Assembly (NCBI GenBank): GCA_016184305.1
Contig: JACPCX010000042.1
Span: 1 to 13,115 of the forward strand
Source of the DNA: Candidatus Rokuibacteriota bacterium
GTDB lineage: Bacteria > Methylomirabilota > Methylomirabilia > Rokubacteriales > CSP1-6
Direction: 5' to 3'
DNA length: 13,115 nt
The notes under the pieces are model-generated. The model was not told where the DNA came from, ran no database searches, and saw only the letters and a list, made by a program, of their open reading frames with translations. Shown here piece after piece: positions 285 to 13,115 of the stretch; within the stretch, counting starts at the first letter, position 1, and the number at the start of each line of letters is the position of its first letter. A program made the position numbers and the translations under genes.

Positions 285-2143
285 GTGGACAGGCATGGCT
301 ACTGGAACAAGATCCTGCACGTGAGCCTCGGGGACGGGCGGACCTGGGTCGAGGAGCCCGGCGACCGCTTCTTCCGGCGCTACGCTGGCGGCCGCGGATT
401 CATCGCCCACTATCTGCTCACGCAGGTGCCGAAAGGCGCCGACCCGCTGGGGCCCGACAACATCCTGGTGTTCGCTCCCGGCTGGGGCCCGACAACATCC
501 TGGTGTTCGCTCCCGGCGTGGTCACGGGCGCCCCCGTCCCGGGCGCTGGCCGGCACAGCGTCGGTGCCAAGTCGCCGCTCACGGGCGGCTTCGGCGAGTC
601 GGAGTCCGGCGGCTACTGGGGCGCCGAGCTCAAGCGCGCGGGCTGGGACGCGATCGTCGTCCACGGCGTGTCGCCGGCGCCCGTCTACCTCTGGATCAAT
701 GACGGCGCCGTCGAGCTTCGCGATGCCGGGCCCCTCTGGGGGCGTATCACGGGCGAGGTCGAGGAGGCGATCGTCTCGGAGCTCGGCGACCCGCGCATCC
801 GCGTCGCCCAGATCGGGCCGGCCGGCGAGAACCTCGTGCGCTTCGCCTGCATCGCCAACGATCTGAACGAGGTGGCCGGGCGCACCGGGATGGGCGCCGT
901 GATGGGCAGCAAGCGGCTCAAGGCCATCGCCGTCCGTGGCCGGAGCCCCGTGAAGATCGCCGACCAGCCGGGCCTCACCGCCATCGCCAAGTGGGTCTCG
1001 TCCACCATGAACGAGAAGCACCGCGCCTTCCACGAGTTCGGCACGGGCGCCGCGATGCAGGGCAAGAGCCTCGAGGGCGGCATGCCCGTCCTCAACTACC
1101 GTCTGGGCGCCTCCGGCACGGTGGCCAGGGTGGACGCCGTCGCCGTGCGCGACCAGGTGCGCGTCAAGATGACCTCGTGCTACTCGTGCTCGGTGCGCTG
1201 CAAGAAGATCGTCCACATCGAGCGGACGGAGGAGGCGGCGCGCGAGGCGTCGGAGACCGTCTACCAGGGCCGCGCGAAGGTTGCCGTCGATCCCGGCGGC
1301 CGGTACCGCGTGGATCCCCGCTACGGCGGCCCGGAGTACGAGTCGCTCGCCGCGCTCGGCGTCAACCTCGGGCTCGACGATCTGATCGCCATCTGCAAGT
1401 CGAACGAGCTGTGCAACTCCCTCGGGATGGACACGGTGTCTCTCGGCGCCACGCTCGCGTGGGCGATGGAGTGCTTCGAGAAGGGCCTCCTCACGCTGGA
1501 GGACACGGGCGGCGTCCCGCTTCGCTTCCACGACGCCGACGGCGTGGTCGCGCTCGTCGAGATGATCGCCCACCGCCGGGGCGTCGGCGACCTCCTCGCG
1601 GAGGGATCGCAGCGCGCCGCGCGCCGGCTCGGGCGCGGCGCGGAGGCGTTCCTGACCACGGTGAAGGGGCTCGAGATGGCGATGCACGACCCGCGTCACA
1701 TGCCGATCATGCGCGCCTCGTATCTGCTCGCCCCCACGGGCGGCGACCACATGCGCCAGACCGGCAACCGCAACGGCCTGCGTAACCAGGTCGGCCTCTG
1801 CCACTTCCTCGCCTACGACGACAGCCAGTCGCTCCAGATCCTCAAGGCCGTCACCGGCTGGGAGGTGACGCCCGAGGAGCTGGTGACGATGGCCCACCGG
1901 GGGCTGACCCTCGCGCGGCTCTTCAACCTCCGCGAGGGCTTCGGCCGCGCCGACGACCGGCTGCCGGCACGGTTCAGCGACCCGCTGCCCAAGCACGCCG
2001 GCCTCACCCCGGAGCAGCAGGACACGATCGTCACCGACTACTACATCGAGCAGGGCTGGGACGCAGCCACGGGCGCGCCCACGACGGAGACCATCCGCGC
2101 GCTCGAGATCGAGGACGATGCCGCCCACGCGGTGTCGCGATGA
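285..2143 (+). pseudogene. Aldehyde:ferredoxin oxidoreductase (tungsten AOR family), frameshifted by a 35-bp duplication
   Basis: N-terminus in ORF 285 (GTG after GGAGA; GYWNKILHVSL...GGRGF...DPLGPDNILVFAPG), remainder in the frame of ORF 155..2143: KSPLTGGFGES, GRTGMGAVMGSKRLKAI, CYSCSVRC, GPEYES, GMDTVS, VKGLEMAMHDPR, GLCHF, FNLREG. Removing one repeat copy gives a 607-aa open frame. Confidence 0.88.
446..515 (+). repeat. Exact 35-bp tandem duplication inside the AOR gene
   Basis: gctggggcccgacaacatcctggtgttcgctcccg at 446-480 and at 481-515. Confidence 0.97.
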
Positions 2144-2169
2144 CACGCACCCAAACGAGGAGAGACGAC

Positions 2170-2769
2170 ATGGCTCAGCTGAGGATTCCACTGGACGCGC
2201 AGCGCTTCGCCACGGGCCTGACCTGGAAGGACTACATGGCCCAGATGGGCGACACCCGCGCCCGCACCGAGGACAACTACCAGAAGGCGGTGCTGACCGA
2301 CGAGGAGCGGAAGTTCTTCGCCGGCATCAGCCAGGTGCGCCATGTGCTCATGCTGGCCGAGAACTGGTGCGGCGACGTCCACCGCAACTCGCCGCTGATC
2401 GCGCGCATCTGCGAGACGATGCCGGGCTGCGAGCTGCGCGTGTTCTTCCGGGACCAGAACCTCGACCTCACGGACTGCTTCCTCAACCACGGCTTCCGCT
2501 CCATCCCGATCGTGGTCTTCTTCGACAAGGACTGGAACGAGCTCGGCCGCTGGATCGAGCGCGCGCACGCAGCGACGGCCAAGGTCGCCGGGATCCGGGC
2601 CCGGACGCTGGACGCCGCGCCGAAGGACCAGCAGGACGCCGCCATGGCCGAGTACCGCAAGCTGGTCACGGCCGAATACGACGTGCCCGGCGGCCCGCTC
2701 TGGCGTGCCGCCGCGGCCGAGGTGCGGCTCTTGCTGGAGACGCGGCTCGGCCTGGCGCCCAAGGCGTAG
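2170..2769 (+). CDS. Thioredoxin-fold protein (Thioredoxin_9-like)
   Basis: AENWCGD motif, RSIPIVVFFD cis-Pro strand, ELGRWIER. ATG 2170 follows a GAGGAG RBS and is preferred over ATG 2140. Confidence 0.82.
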   Translation: MAQLRIPLDAQRFATGLTWKDYMAQMGDTRARTEDNYQKAVLTDEERKFFAGISQVRHVLMLAENWCGDVHRNSPLIARICETMPGCELRVFFRDQNLDLTDCFLNHGFRSIPIVVFFDKDWNELGRWIERAHAATAKVAGIRARTLDAAPKDQQDAAMAEYRKLVTAEYDVPGGPLWRAAAAEVRLLLETRLGLAPKA

Positions 2770-2834
2770 GGACGCCCGCGCCGCGACCGGGGACATCGGT
2801 CATCGCCCGTCCGCGGCGGCGGAGGGTGGAGGGG

Positions 2835-2872
2835 TTGACTCTCCGCGCTCATGTGGTCACAATGACCACATG
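2835..2872 (+). promoter_or_regulatory. Sigma70-type promoter and palindromic operator of the TA operon
   Basis: TTGACT (2835-2840), 17-bp spacer, CACAAT (2858-2863). A perfect inverted repeat CATGTGGTCA-caa-TGACCACATG (2850-2872) overlaps the -10 box. Confidence 0.75.
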
Positions 2873-2898
2873 CCACCAGTCCCAGCGGGGGTGCGTGC

Positions 2899-3186
2899 AT
2901 GAGCAAGGCCGTCGGAGTCCGGGAGCTCAAGACCCGTCTCGGGAGCTATCTCCGCGATGTCCGGCGCGGGCGGACCATCGTGGTCACCGACCGGGGCGAG
3001 CCCGTGGCCGAGCTGCGGCCGATCGCGCCGGCGAGGGCCGGCAGTGGCGCGGAGATCGATCGGCTCGTGGCCCTCGGGCGCCTCACCAGGGTGTCACGGG
3101 CGCCGCTGGCGCCATTCCGCCCCATCAGGCGGAAGGGCCGCTCGCTCTCGGATGCCATCGTCGAGGATCGGGAGGATCGTTTCTGA
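2899..3186 (+). CDS. Type II antitoxin, Phd/YefM family
   Basis: VGVRELKTRLGSYLRDVRRGRTIVVTDRGEPVAELRP is the Phd/YefM N-terminal signature. 95 aa, directly upstream of a PIN toxin. Confidence 0.9.
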   Translation: MSKAVGVRELKTRLGSYLRDVRRGRTIVVTDRGEPVAELRPIAPARAGSGAEIDRLVALGRLTRVSRAPLAPFRPIRRKGRSLSDAIVEDREDRF

Positions 3187-3611
3187 TCCTGTACGTCGAC
3201 GCGAGCGCGCTGGCGAAACGCTACGTCGACGAATCCGGCAGCGCCGGAGTCCGGAAGCTCCTCGCGAGCGGCGGTGTCGCGACCAGCCGTCTGTCCGAGG
3301 TCGAGGTCGCGTCCGCGCTGGCGCGGCGCTGCCGGGAGAGAACCCTCACCCGGCGCGAGCTGGATCGGGCGCTGGCCGCTCTTCGAGCCGACATCGACTC
3401 GATCGCCCTGATCGAGCTCGCCGCCGAGGTCGCCCAGACGGCCGTCGTGCTCCTCGCGCGCCATCCGCTTCGCACCGGCGATTCCGTGCAGCTCGCGTCC
3501 TGCCTGTCCCTCCGGCGCCAGGTCACGGAGGAAGTGCGTTTCCTGGGTTACGATGGGCGCCTCAACGCTGCCGCGCGCGCCGAAGGGCTGGCCCTCATGA
3601 TGGCGGGCTAG
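3183..3611 (+). CDS. vapC: Type II toxin, VapC/PIN-domain ribonuclease (apparent CTG start)
   Basis: (L/M)ILYVDASALAKRY..E...SRLSEVEVASAL...LRTGDSVQLAS...FLGYDGRLNAAARAEG carries the PIN acidic residues. GGAGGA at 3171-3176. CTG 3183 overlaps the antitoxin TGA. It is the 3' part of ORF 2118..3611. Confidence 0.88.
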   Translation: MILYVDASALAKRYVDESGSAGVRKLLASGGVATSRLSEVEVASALARRCRERTLTRRELDRALAALRADIDSIALIELAAEVAQTAVVLLARHPLRTGDSVQLASCLSLRRQVTEEVRFLGYDGRLNAAARAEGLALMMAG

Positions 3612-3674: not shown

Positions 3675-3842
3675 ATGATCAAGACCTCGTATCCCCTCAA
3701 CACCGACGAGGACATGGCCGGGCATGCGCTCGGCGATGCCGAGCGCGCCGCCCTCCAGGCCGGAGACATCGGGAAACTCTACGAGCTCGGCGCTAACCCA
3801 TATTCGATCCGCCGGGTGTTCAGGCGGCGCTTCGCGATCTGA
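3675..3842 (+). CDS. Small LigA-like protein (extradiol dioxygenase alpha-subunit-like), apparently internally shortened
   Basis: MIKTSYPLN-TDEDMAGHALGDAERAALQAGDIGKLYELGANPY resembles the LigA-type pattern Y-x-L-N ... L-x-x-x-E-R-x-A-L-x-x-x-D...L-x-x-x-G-x-N-x-Y. 55 aa from ATG 3675. Confidence 0.45.
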   Translation: MIKTSYPLNTDEDMAGHALGDAERAALQAGDIGKLYELGANPYSIRRVFRRRFAI

Positions 3843-3864
3843 AGCCCCGCGTGCGCGCTCGCTG

Positions 3865-6117
3865 ATGGGGCAGTTCGGGATAGGGCAGGGGATCAGGCGC
3901 TTCGAGGATCTCCGGCTCCTGCGGGGCCAGGGCCGGTACCACAACGACGTCAACCTCCCCGGCCAGACGCACGCCGTTCTCGTCCGCTCGCCGCATGCCC
4001 ACGCGCGGATCCGCTCCATCGACACCTCCGCGGCGCTCAGGGCCCCGGGAGTCCTCGCCGTCCTCACCGGGGCCGACGTGGCGCGTGACGGGCTCGGGAC
4101 GATGCGGATGACGCTCCGGCGCCAGCGGCCCGACGGGTCGCCGATGTTCGCCTCCCCGCACCGCGGCCTGACCCAGGACCGCGTCCGCCACGTGGGCGAC
4201 CCTGTCGCCCTCGTGATCGCCGAGACGCCCGCCGAGGCCAGGGACGCTGCCGAGCTGGTGGACGTCGACTACGAGCCGCTGCCGTCGGTGACGGCGACGG
4301 CGGAGGCCGCGGCGCCGGGCAGCCCGCCCGTGTGGGACGAGTGCCCCGACAACATCTCCAACGTCTTCGAGGCGGGCGACAGGGCCGCGGTCGACGCGGC
4401 CTTTGCCCGGGCCCACCGCGTGGTCCGCCGCCGCTACGTCATCACCCGGGTGCACGCGCAGTACATGGAGCCGCGGGGCGCGCTGGGGGTCTACGATCCC
4501 GGCGAGGACCGCTACACCCTCTATGCGGACGTGCAGTACCCTCACCGCGTCCGGAACGCGCTGGCGAGCCACATCTTCAAGATCCCCGAGCACCAGATCC
4601 GCGTCATCGCGGGCGATGTCGGCGGCGGCTTCGGGACCAAGGGCTGGCAGTACCCCGAGCACAGGCTGGTGGTGTGGGCGGCGCGCAAGGTCGGCCGGCC
4701 CGTGAAGTGGGCCTGCCAGCGCCATGAGGCGATCCTGGCCGACGAGCACGCGCGCGACAATGTCAGCGAGGCGGAGCTGGCGCTGGACGCGGAGGGGCGG
4801 TTCCTCGGCCTGCGCGTCCGGACGCTGGCGAATGTCGGCGCCTACGTGTCCTCGGACCGCAACCTCCTCGCGACCTTCGCCAACGTGTTCACCCTGGTCG
4901 GCGTCTACGCCTTTCCGGCGGCGCATGTCCACGTGAGCTGCGTCTTCACCAACACCAATCCGACCGCGCCGTACCGCGGGGCCGGCCGGCCGGAGGCCAT
5001 CTACGTCATCGAGCGGCTCATCGACGATGCCGCCCGCGAGCTGGGCGTGGACCCGGTGGCGCTGCGCCGCCAGAACCTCATCGCGTCCTCGGCGATGCCG
5101 TTCCGCACCCCGCTGGGGATGACGTACGACTGCGGGGAGTTCGAGAAGAGCATGGATGCGGCGCTCGCGCTCGCCGACGTGGCGGGCTTCGCCGCCCGGC
5201 GCGAGGAGTCGCGCCGGCGGGGCAAGCTGCGCGGCATCGCCGTGGTCAACGCCATCGAGCGGGCCGCCTCCCCCGGGCCCGAGTTCGCCGAGCTGCGCTT
5301 CAACCCCGGCGGGTCGGCGACGATCTTCATGGGCACCAAGAACCAGGGCCAGGGCCACGAGACGACGTTCAAGCAGATCCTCCACGAGCGCCTCGGGATC
5401 GCACCGGAGGAGGTGCGCTTCATCGACGGGGACACGGACCGCGTCGCCTTCGGCATGGGCACCATGGGGTCCCGCTCCACGGTCATCGGCGGCACCGCGC
5501 TGTGGATGGCCGGCCGGTTCACGGTGGCGGGGACTGACCGCGCCGTCGCGCTGAAGGAGGTGGCCCGGGCCGCCTTCCAGCCCGCTCAGATCCCGCCCGG
5601 CCTCGAGCCGGGCCTCTACGAGACGGGGACATTCTCGCCGCCGGCCGACACCTGGCCCAATGGCTGCCACGTCTGCGAGCTGGAGATCGACGAGGCGACC
5701 GGAGCCGTGACGCTGTGCCGCTACATCGTCGTGGACGACGTCGGCACCGTCATCAACCCGCTCACGCTCAAGGGGCAGATCCACGGGGGCGTGGCCCAGG
5801 GCGTGGGCCAGGCGCTCATGGAGCAGGTCCAGTACGACCCCGAGAGCGGCCAGCTCCTGACGACCTCCTTCATGGAGTACGCCATCCCGCGCGCCGACGA
5901 CCTGTGCGACATGCACATCGAGAGCCATCCGGTCCCGACCACGCTCAACCCCCTGGGGGCCAAGGGCGCCGGTGAGGCCGGAACGGTGGGTGCCCTGCCC
6001 GTGGTCATCAACGCCGTCATGAATGCCCTGGCGCCGCTGGGCGTCCGGCATCTCGACATGCCGGCGACGAGCGAAAGAGTCTGGCAGGCCATCCAGGCCG
6101 CCAGGGCGACGCAGTGA
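3865..6117 (+). CDS. Xanthine dehydrogenase family molybdopterin-binding large subunit (CoxL/CutL-like, not form I CO dehydrogenase)
   Basis: GIGQGIRRFEDLRLLRGQGRY, RSPHAHARI, DVGGGFGTKG, PYRGAGRPE, QGQGHET, GQIHGGVAQG, NPLGAKGAGEAG. Start ATG 3865 gives 750 aa. The form I AYRCSFR motif is absent. Confidence 0.92.
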   Translation: MGQFGIGQGIRRFEDLRLLRGQGRYHNDVNLPGQTHAVLVRSPHAHARIRSIDTSAALRAPGVLAVLTGADVARDGLGTMRMTLRRQRPDGSPMFASPHRGLTQDRVRHVGDPVALVIAETPAEARDAAELVDVDYEPLPSVTATAEAAAPGSPPVWDECPDNISNVFEAGDRAAVDAAFARAHRVVRRRYVITRVHAQYMEPRGALGVYDPGEDRYTLYADVQYPHRVRNALASHIFKIPEHQIRVIAGDVGGGFGTKGWQYPEHRLVVWAARKVGRPVKWACQRHEAILADEHARDNVSEAELALDAEGRFLGLRVRTLANVGAYVSSDRNLLATFANVFTLVGVYAFPAAHVHVSCVFTNTNPTAPYRGAGRPEAIYVIERLIDDAARELGVDPVALRRQNLIASSAMPFRTPLGMTYDCGEFEKSMDAALALADVAGFAARREESRRRGKLRGIAVVNAIERAASPGPEFAELRFNPGGSATIFMGTKNQGQGHETTFKQILHERLGIAPEEVRFIDGDTDRVAFGMGTMGSRSTVIGGTALWMAGRFTVAGTDRAVALKEVARAAFQPAQIPPGLEPGLYETGTFSPPADTWPNGCHVCELEIDEATGAVTLCRYIVVDDVGTVINPLTLKGQIHGGVAQGVGQALMEQVQYDPESGQLLTTSFMEYAIPRADDLCDMHIESHPVPTTLNPLGAKGAGEAGTVGALPVVINAVMNALAPLGVRHLDMPATSERVWQAIQAARATQ

Positions 6118-7234: not shown

Positions 7235-7330
7235 CGGGGCCGGCCGAGTTCAGCGCGTTCTGGCTATTCCCCCGAAGACTTCATAGGTTCGCGCCGATCA
7301 TGACGAGGCCGTGAGCTCACCTCAAGGAAA

Positions 7331-7360
7331 GTGCCCCGACGCCCGAAAATCCAGTAGAAT
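7331..7360 (+). promoter_or_regulatory. Possible promoter for the BREX operon
   Basis: TAGAAT -10-like hexamer at 7355-7360 in the relatively AT-rich divergent intergenic region. The -35 match is poor. Confidence 0.3.
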
Positions 7361-7406
7361 ACGGCTGTTTCGCACGGTCCCATCGGCGGACAAGGCGGAG
7401 AACAAC

Positions 7407-7904
7407 GTGGCCGATCCTTTACCCGATCAGATCGTTCGGAAGATTGACGAGGTCAAGGACGGCTATCACCGGCTCGTCCTCGTCGTCGCGCCTGAAGGGG
7501 CGGGCAAGACCGCCGTGCTCCACACGGTCGGTGAGCGCCTGGGAGCGCCATGCATCAATCTCAACCTGGAGCTATCGCGGAGGCTCCTCGACCTCACGGA
7601 ACGCCAGCGCTCGCTGCATGTCCAGGAACTGGTCGAGGAAGTCGTCGCCGAGACCGGCGCCGACGTGGTCCTGCTCGACAACATCGAGATCCTGTTCGAT
7701 CCGAAGCTCCAGCAGGACCCGCTCCGCTGCCTGCAGCAGCTCGCGCGACGCCGCACGGTGGTGGCCACGTGGGGCGGCGCGGTGGCGCACGATGGAGCCA
7801 TCTCGGCTGTGCTGACCTACGCCACGCCGGGTCATCCTGAGTACCGGCGATACTCCGCGAACGATCTGACCATCGTGACCCAGGTGATGGCACCTATCGC
7901 ATGA
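7407..7904 (+). CDS. brxF: BREX type 3 P-loop protein BrxF
   Basis: [16 protein letters not shown] (Walker A-like), [47 protein letters not shown] 7407 follows GGAG. 165 aa, immediately upstream of a large ATPase. Confidence 0.85.
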
Positions 7905-7935: not shown

Positions 7936-10900
7936 ATGAAATACGCGGACCTGATCCAGTTCGACCCCATCGAGACGGTCGTCCAGCTTCGTGACGCCGA
8001 CAAGGTCGCCGCCGCCCGCCGCCTGGTCTCGACGTATGTCATCTCGGACACGATGGCCGACAAGCTGGCGAACCTCGTGTTCGCCCACCTCCAGTTCGAG
8101 CAGCCTCAAGACAACAAGGGTCTCCTCATTGTCGGCAACTACGGCACCGGAAAGTCGCACCTGATGTCGGTGATCTCAGCGGTGGCCGAGCACGCCGACC
8201 TGGTGCAGGTTCTTCGCCACACAGATGTTGCTAAGGCCGCAGGGAGGGTGGCCGGGAAATTCAAGGTGGTCCGGGTCGAGATCGGCGCCACGACGATGTC
8301 GCTACGCGACCTTTTGTGCCAGGAGCTCGAGGAACACCTCGCGCGGCTCGGCGCCCCTTTCGCGTTCCCCTCCGCCGGCGAGGTCAGGAGTCACAAGCCG
8401 CTGTTCGAGCAAATGATGGCGGCGTTCCAGCAGCGCTGGCCCGACCACGGGCTCCTGCTCGTCGTCGACGAGCTCCTCGACTACCTGCGCACCCGGACGG
8501 ACCATGCCCTGATCCTGGACCTCGGCTTCCTGCGCGAGATCGGGGAGGTCTGCCGGGATCTCCGATTCCGCTTCGTCGGCGGCATCCAGGAGATGCTCTT
8601 CGACAATCCGCGCTTCCAGTTCGTGGCCGACAGCATGAGGAGAGTCAAGGACCGCTTCGAGCAGGTACTCATCGCCAGGGACGACATCAAGCACGTTGTG
8701 GCCGAGCGGCTCCTGCGCAAGACATCCGAACAGCAGGCGCTGATTCGCCAGCACCTGCAGCCGTTCGCCAAGTTCTACGGGGCGATGAACGAGCGTATGG
8801 ACGAGTTCGCCCGTCTGTTCCCGGTGCATCCCGACTACATCGCCACCTTCGAGCAGATTCGCGTCGTCGAGAAGCGGGAAGTCCTGAAAACGCTGTCGAA
8901 CTCCATGAAGCAGCTCTTGCCGCAGGAGGTCTCGGCGAACGACCCGGGCCTGCTCGCCTACGACACTTACTGGGCGGCCATCCGTGAGAATCCCTCGTTC
9001 AACGCAATCCCCGACGTCAAGGCAGTCATCGACTGCAGCCAGGTGCTGGAAGGCCGCGTTCAGCAGGCGTTCACACGGCCGGCGTCTCGGCCGATGGCCC
9101 TGCGGATCATCCATGGCCTGAGCGTCCACCGCCTCACGACCGGTGAGATCGACAGCCCTCTCGGGGCCACTGCCGCTGAGCTGCGGGACGGCTTATGCCT
9201 GTACCAGCCCGGGATCGAGCAGATGGGCGGGGTCCCAGCAGATGACTTGCTCGGGCAGATCGAGGTAGTGCTCCGCGAGATCGTCAAGACCGTTAGCGGT
9301 CAGTTCATCTCCCTGAATACCGAGAACCAGCAGTACCACCTCGACCTCAAGAAGACCGCGGACTACGACGCGCTCATCGACAAGCGCGCCGAGACGCTTG
9401 GGAGCGATCTCCTCGACCGCTATTACTTCGACGCGCTAAAGCGCGTCATGGAGTGTGCAGACGTCACCGTGGTCAACGGCTACCGTATCTGGGAGCACGA
9501 GTTGGAATGGCGCGAGCGGAAGGCTGCGCGCCTGGGCTATCTCTTCTTCGGCGCGCCGAACGAGCGGTCGACGGCGCAACCCCCGCGCGACTTCTACCTG
9601 TATTTTCTCCAGCCCCACGACCCACCCCCCTTCAGGGATGAGCGGCGGGGCGACGAAGTGTTCTTCCGCCTGAGCGCCCCGGACGATGAGTTCCGGGACG
9701 CTCTGCGCCGGTACGCGGGAGCGCGCGACCTGACGGGCACGTCATCGGGCCAGGCCAAGAAGACTTACGAGGACAAGGCCGAGGGCGCGCTTGGCAAGCT
9801 GACCGGGTGGCTCCGAGATCACATGACGACGGCCTTCCAGGTCGCCCACCAGGGGCGCCAGAAGCCCTTGCTCGAGTGGGTCAAGGGGAAGGTCCCACCG
9901 AGATCCGGCGCGAGCATCAACGTCCGTGACCTCGTGAACGCCGTGGGGTCAATCTGCCTCGTTTCCTCCTTCGAGGAGCAGAGCCCGGACTACCCGACCT
10001 TCTCGATCCTCATCACCAGCGATAACCGGAAGCAGGCCGCCCAGGACGCCTTGCGCTGGCTCACCGGCCGCCAGCAGACGAAGCAGGGGGCCGCCGTGCT
10101 CGACGCGCTCGAGCTGCTCGACGGCGAGAAGCTTCGTCCGCAGTCGTCGAAGTATGCCCGGCACATTCTTGACCTGCTCGGACAGAAGGGCCACGGCCAG
10201 GTGCTCAACCGGCCGGAGCTGATCCACGACGTCCTTGGCGTGGAGTACGACATGAAGTTCCGTCTCGATCCCGAGTGGGTCGTCGTTCTCCTGGCTTCGC
10301 TGGTCTACACCGGGGACCTGACGCTGAGCCTGCTCGGCAAGAAGTTCGACGCAAGCGGGCTCGACCAGCTGGCCGCCACGCCCGTCGACGACCTGATCGC
10401 CTTCAAGCACGCCGAACGACCGAAGGAGTGGAACCTCCCCGCAATCAAGGCGCTCTTCGAGCTGGTGGACCTGCCCACTGGCCTGGCCACCCAGATTACC
10501 CAAGGAAGCGACGAGCCAATCGTGGCGCTGGCGACCGAGGTCGCCAAGCGCGTCGAGCGGATCGTGGTCGCTCAGCAGAAGCTGCAGGACGGGTTGGCCT
10601 TCTGGGGCAAGGCCGTCCTCGCGGAGAACGAGCAGGCGGACATCGGTCAGCGGCTCGTCAAGACCAAGGCCTTCCTCGAGTCCCTCCAGGCGTACAACTC
10701 AGCGGGGAAGCTCAAGAACTTCCGCTACACCGCCGACGAGGTGACGGCCCAACGGATCGGCCTGGATTCGCTTCGCGAAGTCGAGGGTCTGACGGAGCTG
10801 GTCGCCGATCTCGCTCCGGCAGCGGCCTATCTCATGACGGCAGAGCACGTCCTGCCGGCCACCCACTCCTGGGTGTCCACCATGCAGACCCAGAAAGCCC

Positions 10901-11643
10901 AGATCATGGCCGAGGTCGGTAGCCCGCAGAGACGGACATCGCCGTCGTTCCGCCAGCAAGTGGCCCAGCGCCTCGGTGCGCTGAAGGCAGACTACGTCGA
11001 GACCTACCTGCTCGAGCACGCCAAAGGGCGCCTCGACGCCACCGTCGACAGGCGCAAGACCAAGCTGATGAAGGATGGGCGCCTGGACCGGCTCTCCAAG
11101 CTCTCGGCCATCGAGCTGATGCCGCGCCAGCAGCTCATCGATGTCCGGGAGCGCCTCGCCACCCTGAAGCCGTGCTACGCCGTCGGCAAGCCCGAGCTCG
11201 AGGCCGACCCGGTGTGCCTGCACTGCCAGCTCCGTCCGGCGAACGAGCCTCCGGCCGCTCCCGCCTCGGCCCAACTCGCCCAGCTCGACCAAGAGCTGGA
11301 CACGCTCTTTAGCGACTGGACGCGCGCGCTCCTGGCGAACCTGGAGGACCCGACCACCAAGGGCAACCTCGCCCTGCTCAAGCCGGCGCAGGGCAAGGCG
11401 ATCGAGGCGTTTCTCAAGTCACGCACGCTGCCTGACGATCTCAGCAACACCTTCATCCAGGCCGTCCAGGAGGTGCTCTCCGGCCTGCAGAAGGTCGTGG
11501 TCACTGGCGCCGACCTTCGCACCGCTCTCCTGGCGGGAGGGTCGCCGGTCACCCCCGTCGAGCTGAAGAAACGCTTCGACGACTACCTCGCCGGCCTGGC
11601 AAAGGGCAAGGACCCGGCCAAGATCAGGATCGTCATCGAGTAG
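7936..11643 (+). CDS. brxC: BREX type 3 large P-loop ATPase (BrxC/PglY, DUF6079 family)
   Basis: 1235 aa. [18 protein letters not shown] start, Walker A GNYGTGKS, Walker [33 protein letters not shown]-terminal CLHC and IRIVIE. Lies downstream of brxF. Confidence 0.88.
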
Positions 11644-11651
11644 CCAGCTGA

Positions 11652-12136
11652 ATGGCCGCCCGGTTCAGTGACGCGGAGATCGCGCAGCTGCTCGCGGAGG
11701 CGAAGCCCTTGCCCGACGACTACCAGGCGCGCCTCCAGCTTCGCAGCGGTCGGGTCACGAACGTGCCGAGTTGGACGTTCGCACTCCCTCGGGGAATCGC
11801 TTCCGAATCCTGCCCCGACAGAACATGCGCAATGCCCTGGACTTCTCGGCAATCATCGCCCACGCCCCATCAAACTCCAGCCTCTTCTTCCGGCTCCGTC
11901 GCTACAATGGCAGGAGCCATGAGCACACCAACCGGCTCGAAGGCACGACCTTCTACGATTTCCACATCCACATGGCCACCGAGCGCTATCAGGCCCTGGG
12001 AGCGAAGGAGGAATCCTTTGCCGAGCCGAGCGACCGCTTTGCCGATCTCCGCGGGGCTCTCGCCTGCTTGCTCGATGACTGCCCCTTCCGTCGGCCCGAC
12101 ACCCCCTCCTCGAAGGGCTCACGCCATGACTCCTGA
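11652..12136 (+). pseudogene. Small hypothetical His-motif protein (RRYNG-x-SHEHTN...FHIH), frameshifted near 11745
   Basis: Frame of 11652 gives MAARFSDAEIAQLLAEAKPLPDDYQARLQLR. The protein-like continuation is in the -1 frame: SGHERAELDVRT...LDFSAII...RLRRYNGRSHEHTNRLEGTTFYDFHIHMATERYQ. That frame has a stop at 11669 and no good start of its own. Confidence 0.65.
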
Positions 12137-12902
12137 GGCTGTCGAGCGAGACTTCCGCGAGAAGGTCTGCGACAAACTCCGCCTCGCCTCGGAGGGCCTC
12201 GACCGCTACCGGGTGTTCACCCCGTTCCAGTTCGAGGATGGCGACCATCTCGCCATCGTGCTCAAGCGCGAGGGCAGCACCTGGGTGCTCTCCGACGAGG
12301 GGCACACCTACATGCACCTCACGTACGAGCTCGACGAGCGCGATCTGCACAAGGGCACGCGCGAGAAGATCATCACCAATGCCCTGTCCGTGTTCGCTGT
12401 GGAGGATCGCGACGGTGAGTTGGTTCTCACGATCCCGGACCAGCGCTACGGGGACGCTCTCTACAACTTCGTCCAGGCACTCCTCAAGATCACGGACGTC
12501 ACTTATCTCTCCCGCGAGCGGGTCCGCTCCACGTTCCTCGAGGACTTCCGCGCGTTGATGGAGGAGACGGTGCCTGAGAGCCGGCGTGCTTTCGACTGGT
12601 ACCATCGCGAGCGCGATCCGGACGCCAAGTACGGCGTCGACTGCCGGATCAACTCGATGGCGCGGCCGCTCTTCGTCTTTGCCGTCCAGAACGACGACAA
12701 GGCGCGCGACACGACCATCACCTTGCACCAGTTCGAAAAGTGGGGCCTCGCCTTTCGCTCGGTGGCCGTCTTCGAGGACCAGGAGTCAATCAACCGACGG
12801 GTGCTGGCCCGATTCAGCGACGTGGGCGAGAAGCTCTTCTCGAGTCTGGGGGCGAACCGGGACCGCATCGTCCAGTACGTGCAGGACTCCATGAATGGCT
12901 GA
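12126..12902 (+). CDS. DUF1828-domain protein
   Basis: YRVFTPFQFEDGDHLAIVLKREGSTWVLSDEGHT matches the DUF1828 TPF-x-x-x-x-GD...LSD-x-G-x-T pattern. Likely start is ATG 12126 (258 aa), within ORF 11652..12902. Confidence 0.75.
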   Translation: MTPEAVERDFREKVCDKLRLASEGLDRYRVFTPFQFEDGDHLAIVLKREGSTWVLSDEGHTYMHLTYELDERDLHKGTREKIITNALSVFAVEDRDGELVLTIPDQRYGDALYNFVQALLKITDVTYLSRERVRSTFLEDFRALMEETVPESRRAFDWYHRERDPDAKYGVDCRINSMARPLFVFAVQNDDKARDTTITLHQFEKWGLAFRSVAVFEDQESINRRVLARFSDVGEKLFSSLGANRDRIVQYVQDSMNG

Positions 12903-13115
12903 ACGTAAGAAGTCGGGTTCGAAGAGTGCATCTGCGTCCCGGAAGCGGACTCCGAGGGCTCGTGCCAAGGGTCGCACCGGCGAGCTCTTCATCGAGGCCG
13001 GTGGCCAGCTCCGGCTGGCCGACAAGTCCGCCGAGCAGGTCGTCCTCGAGACCGGCCGCGTCGAGTGCCTCGGCCTGACTTTCGACGGCGAGGACGCGAG
13101 GCGGCAGCACTTCCT
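12895..13115 (+). CDS. pglXI: BREX type 3 DNA methyltransferase PglXI, N-terminal fragment (runs off the window)
   Basis: Manual translation from ATG 12895: MAERKKSGSKSASASRKRTPRARAKGRTGELFIEAGGQLRLADKSAEQVVLETGRVECLGLTFDGEDARRQHF. The VECLG-x-TF...ARR-x-x-F segment resembles BREX-3 methylase N-termini, and the position fits the brxF-brxC-pglXI order. Catalytic motifs are outside the window. Confidence 0.65.
   Translation, partial: MAERKKSGSKSASASRKRTPRARAKGRTGELFIEAGGQLRLADKSAEQVVLETGRVECLGLTFDGEDARRQHF

Follow-up and report, generated by a model that had tools for sequence, protein, structure and literature searches.

The locus between brxC and pglXI

Nested within a BREX-3 operon of a Candidatus Rokuibacteriota bacterium lie two extra genes, here termed A (small and His-rich) and B, which occupy positions 11652–12902 on the forward strand of the window under study, namely the whole 13,115-base contig JACPCX010000042.1 of a metagenome-assembled genome (GCA_016184305.1; 239 contigs, 88.8% complete). 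By sequence comparison, the pair is probably a divergent copy of a widespread candidate defense pair already catalogued by PADLOC as PDC-M24, rather than an uncatalogued system. Gene A is broken in the window, while gene B and the upstream genes brxF and brxC are intact.

Gene A begins in frame 0, in which its codons 1–31 (11652–11744) share 97% identity with residues 1–32 of the closest homologue, the intact 162-residue protein P0004. A one-nucleotide deletion then interrupts this frame, and the remainder of the protein, with its conserved RYNG, HxH and HxH core, is encoded in frame 2 (11744–12136) with 95% identity to P0004 residues 31–153; aligned in these two pieces, the identity to P0004 is 96%. 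The initial annotation had called for such a frame repair, and the switch from frame 0 to frame 2 at 11744 confirms the need for it. Read with translation table 11, positions 11652–12902 form a single open reading frame (ORF) of 416 residues. This is an accidental false fusion, since the frameshift leaves frame 0 open all the way through both genes: past residue 31 the frame-0 product is Pro/Ser/Thr-rich nonsense, while frame 2 from 11744 yields a well-formed protein. Gene callers would nonetheless report the fusion as an ORF in this window. Were translation to be initiated at 11652, it would yield the gene B product with a 158-residue nonsense extension at its N-terminus. Gene B itself (12126–12902) encodes an intact protein of 258 residues.

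The right half of the window comprises the 5' part of the BREX-3 operon, in the order brxF, brxC, the pair and a stub of pglXI, with the flanking genes assigned by Pfam, PADLOC and NCBIfam. The operon starts with brxF (7311–7904, forward strand), which codes for the BREX-3 P-loop protein (PADLOC BrxF, E 9.6e-60; NCBIfam BREX_3_BrxF, 180.6 bits versus a cut-off of 50). It is followed by an intact brxC/pglY (7936–11643, forward), whose 1235-residue product is spanned from residue 1 to 1235 by Pfam DUF6079 (a profile of 1238 positions) and scores 1875 bits with PADLOC BrxC. Downstream of the pair, the 5' end of pglXI (12895–13113, forward) is truncated by the contig end; it is 89% identical to PglXI residues 1–73 of L004, the nearest related locus, in which the pair is intact, and has a weak PADLOC PglXI match. 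A search of the window's own assembly for the remaining operon genes recovered PglXI only as this 73-residue stub and, with the L004 query, no PglZ; as the assembly is 88.8% complete, this does not show absence.

The packing of these genes is tight. An 8-nucleotide gap separates the brxC stop (11641–11643) from the gene A ATG at 11652, the gene B ATG at 12126 overlaps the frame-2 stop of gene A (12134–12136), and the gene B stop (12900–12902) overlaps the pglXI ATG at 12895 by 8 nucleotides. These start and stop coordinates bear out the placement given in the initial annotation, and the motifs it had pointed to, RY-N, HxH and HxH in the product of gene A and YGVDCRI in that of gene B, are likewise present. 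A consensus scan of 8311–13115 found no sigma-70 promoter-like and no terminator-like sites, with one weak hairpin at 8298, a pattern that is weakly consistent with co-transcription of the pair with BREX.

Family, spread and genomic context of the pair

Gene B is a DUF1828 protein (PF08861; E 7e-26, 90.8 bits versus a gathering cut-off of 22, residues 32–122) and matches the PADLOC PDC-M24B profiles PDLC04539 (E 2.7e-20) and PDLC04540 (E 1.8e-13). Gene A belongs to a family of which 855 proteins were recovered at E <= 0.001 among 858 candidates, with intact homologues of 157–163 residues. Its likeness to DUF6978 (PF22398), suggested in the initial annotation, holds, though below the Pfam cut-off: P0004 scores 19.6 bits against a gathering threshold of 29.6, and 14 of 33 members of the subfamily match at E <= 1 (best 4.7e-9), while the frame-2 product of the window has no DUF6978 match. 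By these scores the gene A subfamily is related to DUF6978 at a level below the curated threshold. Among PADLOC profiles the frame-2 product has no match at E <= 10 and P0004 has none at E <= 1e-6; NCBIfam has no model matching either A or B; and a protein atlas search with gene A returned only DUF6978-type or unnamed clusters, leaving no usable match once DUF6978 was excluded. The isoelectric points of A and B were uninformative.

The link to a catalogued candidate comes from a phage. Pseudomonas phage 5399 codes for a protein of 172 residues (38% identity to P0004) and one of 258 residues (26% to the window's B), whose genes overlap by 4 nucleotides and lie directly behind cI on the same strand; homologous pairs are seen in temperate Pseudomonas phages. 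The phage A homologue matches the PDC-M24A profile PDLC04538 (E 1.2e-8), the phage B homologue matches PDC-M24B (E 1.3e-13), and both share with the window proteins matches to PHROG families of unknown function. Since the phage homologues match both PDC-M24A and PDC-M24B, the pair can be regarded as a divergent member of PDC-M24, and the suggestion in the initial annotation that it may be an uncharacterized module gives way to this assignment, a match to an already named system being among the outcomes listed there as refuting it. Like PDC-M24, it consists of two co-oriented genes, a DUF6978-type gene of ~150–170 codons followed by a DUF1828 gene of ~255 codons, embedded in BREX, Hma and restriction-modification operons. 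It differs in that the window's A subfamily lacks a direct PDC-M24A match, that B aligns only to positions 17–147 of the 255-position PDC-M24B profile (the N-terminal half of B), that conservation is much tighter in the window subfamily than in the phage copies, and that the window's A is broken. The PDC entries are phage-defense candidates from a "guilt-by-embedding" screen (bioRxiv 10.1101/2024.01.29.577857). A literature search for "PDC-M24" found no mention of the name, and papers naming "DUF6978" or "DUF1828" show, in their titles and the beginnings of their abstracts, no link to the pair.

A scan of one genome per species yielded 376 stretches encoding A relatives, of which the best 80, from many phyla, were kept as loci L004–L083. 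A B homologue directly follows A on the same strand in all 80, with a spacing of -76 to +15 nucleotides by our own ORF calls (three B genes are truncated by contig ends), and the same holds for three of three viral contigs, phage 5399 and the same-genus genome G001. Thus, the two families co-occur in a fixed pairing. Gene A is present in only 2 of 61 related genomes, the window's own included, yet A and B are 50–70% identical between phyla, with mean column identities of 64% (A1) and 73% (A2) in the alignments of the 80 loci; this combination of patchy presence and cross-phylum identity points to horizontal spread under strong constraint. Viral contigs account for three loci of this subfamily, each carrying both genes, while plasmids gave only three weak partial matches to B.

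For the genomic context, three ORFs of at least 90 residues were taken on each side of the pair. Among the 341 of these with at least 120 residues, Pfam was run on 104 cluster representatives and PADLOC on 57 proteins, and the labels were spread by BLAST cluster, with two such labels (L007 and L034) being too weak to count. On this basis, methylation-based systems contain or adjoin 28 of the 80 loci, which supports the initial annotation in that the pair is often nested in defense operons. Ten are in BREX-3, with the pair lying after brxC and before pglXI in every case where the contig includes both genes; that only 10 of the 80 are found there accords with the earlier claim that the pair lies outside the BREX-3 core. 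Another 10 are in Hma, where the pair sits between hmaA and hmaB in the five complete loci, the other five being partial. The pair lies between hsdS and hsdR in three type I loci and between mod and res in two type III loci, beside the enzyme gene in two type IIG loci, and beside the system in one DpnII-like type II locus. Inside such operons, the cassette usually stands just upstream of a methyltransferase or restriction gene. Seventeen further loci have only other defense-type neighbors (e.g., Cas1, DarG, KAP NTPases, HNH, PDC-S28, PDC-S31 and PDC-S60), and the remaining 35 have no defense-type neighbor among those scanned, 3 of them having both flanks shorter than 1.5 kb. Few unexplained cargo cassettes are as common as this pair in methylation-based immune operons and downstream of the repressor genes of prophages, and the window adds a BREX-3 example at the brxC–pglXI junction.

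The core of BREX-3 has been described as six parts, with the pair not among them (PMC12839542, section 25). The same survey describes embedded "backup" effectors in general; DUF1828 is not mentioned in its main text, as distinct from its supplement, which may list the pair. In relatives, genes of other kinds also occupy the brxC–pglXI gap, namely those for a YhcG/DUF1016 nuclease (PADLOC PDC-S02) and for a HEC-01/PARIS-like ATPase accompanied by a DUF4276 protein, as well as a Schlafen-type gene (L042, 5877–6989; L043, 8680–9867; L048, 8090–9864 and 11311–13095), and the presence of this other cargo marks the gap as a cargo hotspot. A parallel might be struck with PARIS and HEC-01, the AriA-AriB-like pairs of an ATPase and a TOPRIM protein, which are likewise two-gene cargo embedded in BREX and Hma in the same gap; indeed, L048 has both, with a HEC-01 pair next to a DUF6978/DUF1828 pair in its brxC–pglXI gap. 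Their proteins are unrelated to A or B, and a trigger and target are established for PARIS only, these being Ocr and tRNA, respectively (PMC12839542, section 35).

Two of the BREX-3 relatives show further features of their own. In L004, a 200-residue protein behind pglXI (13636–14235) matches PADLOC PDC-M45B (E 4.6e-61), and the expected BrxHII helicase is seen only as a 491-residue piece (~14235–16024), for which reason this operon may be eroded. In L010, from a long-contig metagenome-assembled genome, brxC and pglXI are each split into several ORFs around an intact pair (~5,700–16,500), which reflects either indel errors of long reads or the decay of BREX-3 around a cassette that has survived.

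Structural models and possible modes of action

The model of B (predicted local distance difference test, pLDDT, 87) has two domains. The first (residues 1–131) resembles the type III secretion chaperone fold, with the closest matches being 3cxj (Z 9.6, root-mean-square deviation [rmsd] 3.1 over 119 aligned residues) and Spa15 (Z 9.4, rmsd 2.8 over 109), followed by VecA (Z 8.2), with VecA, InvB, SicP and SpcU together spanning Z 7.5–8.2. What is shared with these chaperones (Spa15, SicP, InvB, SpcU and VecA) is the fold and the predicted holding of a small partner, here A; the pair differs in having no secretion context and a sequence identity of only 4–15%. At the level of models, the shared fold thus indicates a mode of partner binding and not a function. 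The second domain (residues 133–258) resembles the restriction-endonuclease fold, matching PspGI (Z 10.7, rmsd 5.9 over 153 aligned residues), Cdn1 (Z 9.4, rmsd 3.6 over 111), Can2 (Z 8.8, rmsd 3.4 over 113), BsaWI and NucS (both Z 8.5), and, as the best Foldseek match, VC1899 (E 0.008). Support for this fold is moderate, because CheY-like receiver domains score nearly as high (Z 7.5–8.6). The catalytic (D/E)xK motif was not found in this domain, the third strand being a hydrophobic run, and no residue in it is invariant once phage and viral homologues are included (Asp172, for instance, is lost in L090). The conjecture that the C-terminal half of B is a degenerate restriction-endonuclease-like domain is thus in keeping with both the fold matches and the missing catalytic motif.

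The AlphaFold model of A alone is poor (pLDDT 68, with the conserved region 84–111 below 50), and a profile of A found nothing below E 1.7 among PDB sequences. The two proteins modeled together give a different picture: the complex prediction reaches interface scores (ipSAE) of 0.84, 0.84 and 0.83, whereas the best of three controls stays at 0.00; partner pLDDT values are at least 85, and at least 87% of contacts agree between runs. Of 157 solved complexes, 116 attain the mark applied to this score, as do 2 of 215 mismatched pairs; these counts are rough here, since the prediction of the pair used our own alignments. Structure prediction of the pair, a check named in the initial annotation, hence lends support to binding, and A and B probably bind each other. 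Mutual binding is one mark of a type II toxin-antitoxin pair, a role that, like that of a guard, is putative for A and B. In the model, B residues 37–43 (an Asp-Gly-Asp loop), 58–63 and 66–68 face A residues 84–95 and 107, which comprise the Arg/Asn-Gly and His cluster. These are very nearly the residues that are invariant in the most distant homologues, namely an Arg, an Asn-Gly, His92, Asn94, Gly98, His105, His107, Thr110 and Glu111 in A, and Pro33, Asp38-Gly-Asp40, Asp57, Gly59, Thr61, Met63, Leu65 and Tyr67 in B. The window thereby contributes a testable model of the complex, in which the Asp-Gly-Asp loop of B lies on the His92, His105 and His107 cluster of A.

With moderate confidence, we favor the reading that the pair is a mobile PDC-M24 cassette carried as BREX-3 cargo, with A as the effector and B as its inhibitor or sensor, and that the window copy is a decaying remnant. 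The two genes would then not be BREX-3 subunits but a self-contained, horizontally mobile cassette with A (~160 residues) followed by B (~258 residues). In this scheme, A would be a putative metal-dependent hydrolase or nuclease with a site built from the Arg, Asn-Gly, His92, Asn94, His105, His107 and Thr-Glu conserved across the family. B would hold A in a 1:1 complex by its chaperone-like N-terminal domain, with the acidic Asp-Gly-Asp loop covering the His cluster of A, while its C-terminal domain, of nuclease-like fold without a catalytic motif, would act as a sensor or anchor, with infection leading it to release or activate A. This division of roles, with A as the catalytic effector and B as a holder and non-catalytic sensor, is drawn from the predicted interface and the residue conservation.

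Several observations weigh against this favored reading. A has no fold match, either with Foldseek against the PDB (best E 0.23) or with VIA-align against 48,161 chains (best Z 4.0), a failed search that says nothing on the novelty of the fold because the model is poor in the conserved core; in consequence, the designation "hydrolase or nuclease" draws only on the conserved pattern of His, Asn and Glu residues. The membership of gene A in PDC-M24 is transitive through the phage homologue, with neither the window's A nor P0004 matching PADLOC directly, and PDC-M24 is itself a computational candidate only. The 35 loci without a defense-type neighbor among those scanned fit a defense role poorly, and A and B are unusually conserved for defense cargo, the phage copies being only 26–38% identical. 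Among the 80 loci, A and B are each split once (in L057 and L074, respectively), so that there is no general bias toward losing A first. Finally, with the conserved site covered by the interface, a composite active site is as good a fit as inhibition.

This last point leads to the main rival, fitted by the same models, in which A and B form an obligate two-subunit machine and neither is a restrained toxin. The active site would be a composite of the His cluster of A with the Asp-Gly-Asp and Asp/Thr residues of B, and both proteins would be needed for one activity, e.g., sensing or cutting modified or foreign nucleic acid. In the predicted interface, the residues most conserved in A do face those most conserved in B, the pLDDT of A rises from 68 alone to at least 85 in the complex (values from different predictors), and the genes are always adjacent and often overlapping. 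The His residues of B at 41, 60 and 64 are, however, not kept in the phage and viral homologues, and such a machine is possible while falling on the unlikely side.

A doubtful extension of the cassette view is that the pair serves as a guard for methyltransferase-based immunity in general, with B monitoring the state of the system or a phage anti-restriction factor. B might sense a DNA mimic or the depletion of S-adenosylmethionine, and a blocked system would lead it to free A and thereby abort the infection, with A being a new kind of His-cluster nuclease of no known fold. The recurrence of the cassette at one point, immediately upstream of the methyltransferase or restriction gene, across BREX-3, Hma, type I and type III operons would thereby be explained. 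The anticodon nuclease PrrC offers a precedent: it lies inside the EcoprrI type Ic restriction-modification locus, is silenced by the host system and fires when a phage blocks restriction. Like the pair, it is an extra gene nested among the subunit genes of a methylation-based system, and its guard logic is that which the initial annotation had proposed for the pair. It differs in being a single ABC-ATPase-type protein, without sequence or fold relation to A or B, and in that the A–B pair occurs also away from methylation-based systems. PrrC is named in the discussion of the preprint that reports the PDC screen (Payne et al., bioRxiv 10.1101/2024.01.29.577857).

It is distinctly unlikely that the roles are reversed, such that A is the regulator or sensor and B the effector, acting as a non-canonical PD-(D/E)xK nuclease. 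The restriction-endonuclease matches of its C-terminal domain and a weak match of the B profile to a CRISPR-associated protein (E 0.008) would speak for this, but the hydrophobic third strand, the lack of invariant residues in distant homologues and the near-equal scores of the receiver domains all speak against it.

Little probability is likewise given to the cassette being a selfish addiction module, or a regulator of the adjacent methyltransferase or restriction gene, that uses a permissive insertion site and has no anti-phage role of its own. The loci without defense-type neighbors, the frequent overlap of the cassette with the start of a downstream methyltransferase gene and the other cargo occupying the same BREX-3 gap speak for such a reading. 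Set against these, no DNA-binding regulator domain was seen in either A or B by Pfam and profile scans, and the position behind cI in a temperate phage is typical of exclusion genes expressed in the lysogen. In lambda, such a position is taken by rexAB, which the pair of phage 5399 parallels in lying directly downstream of cI on the same strand, although searches brought up no similarity to RexA or RexB. Moreover, seven of nine Hma-embedded candidates tested by Payne et al. protected (bioRxiv 10.1101/2024.01.29.577857).

Two deletions in gene A and the probable decay of this copy

Relative to intact relatives, gene A of the window bears two lesions. One C is absent at 11743/11744, within a short C run, and 10 nucleotides are absent after 12105; the latter alters the last ~10 residues and shifts the stop from 12127–12129 to 12134–12136. 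The ancestral arrangement is seen in L004, where A and B overlap by 4 nucleotides, stop on start. Both sites were compared over 11400–12400 with Logan contigs of four public runs: X1 and X4, which are from the same study, with X1 possibly being the source sample, and X5 (soil) and X6 (groundwater), from two other studies. The contigs of X1 and X4 are identical to the window across both lesion sites, without gaps, at word depths of 5 and 47, respectively. Those of X5 and X6 are 90–99% alike to the window; two X5 contigs and one X6 contig have the extra C, and one of two X5 contigs and one X6 contig have the extra 10 nucleotides. Both deletions are real and not an artifact of the assembler of this genome, since the independently built contigs of X1 and X4 reproduce them.

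That gene A is nonetheless intact in the cell, the frameshift being an assembly error or bypassed by programmed -1 frameshifting, is very improbable: the one-nucleotide lesion does sit in a C run and contigs cannot exclude a minority intact allele, but two runs repeat both lesions exactly (if from one study, with X1 perhaps the source), a 10-nucleotide deletion is atypical as a read error, there is no slippery heptamer at 11739–11747, and close relatives encode the protein in a single frame. Programmed frameshifting in particular is rejected on the last two counts.

The divergence of the window from L004 differs by gene. In gene A, 28 of 456 nucleotides differ, with a ratio of nonsynonymous to synonymous codons of 13:11; the corresponding figures are 21 of 774 and 8:11 for gene B, and 89 of 3705 and 30:54 for brxC. 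These values fit a relaxed constraint on gene A, without proving it. As gene A is truly broken, the window copy of the pair is probably non-working, and with two real deletions in A and an intact B it may be seen as a decaying remnant that has lost its effector and kept its partner. The window thereby supplies a naturally occurring case of an intact partner gene beside a disrupted gene for the putative effector.

Apart from the BREX-3 operon, the left half of the window has an ORF of 497 residues (2118–3611, forward strand), whose N-terminal 350 residues have no family match and whose C-terminal part is a PIN domain (Pfam E 1.1e-7, residues 359–465). It is flanked by an aldehyde:ferredoxin oxidoreductase gene (155–2143) and a molybdopterin-binding xanthine-dehydrogenase-like gene (3724–6117).

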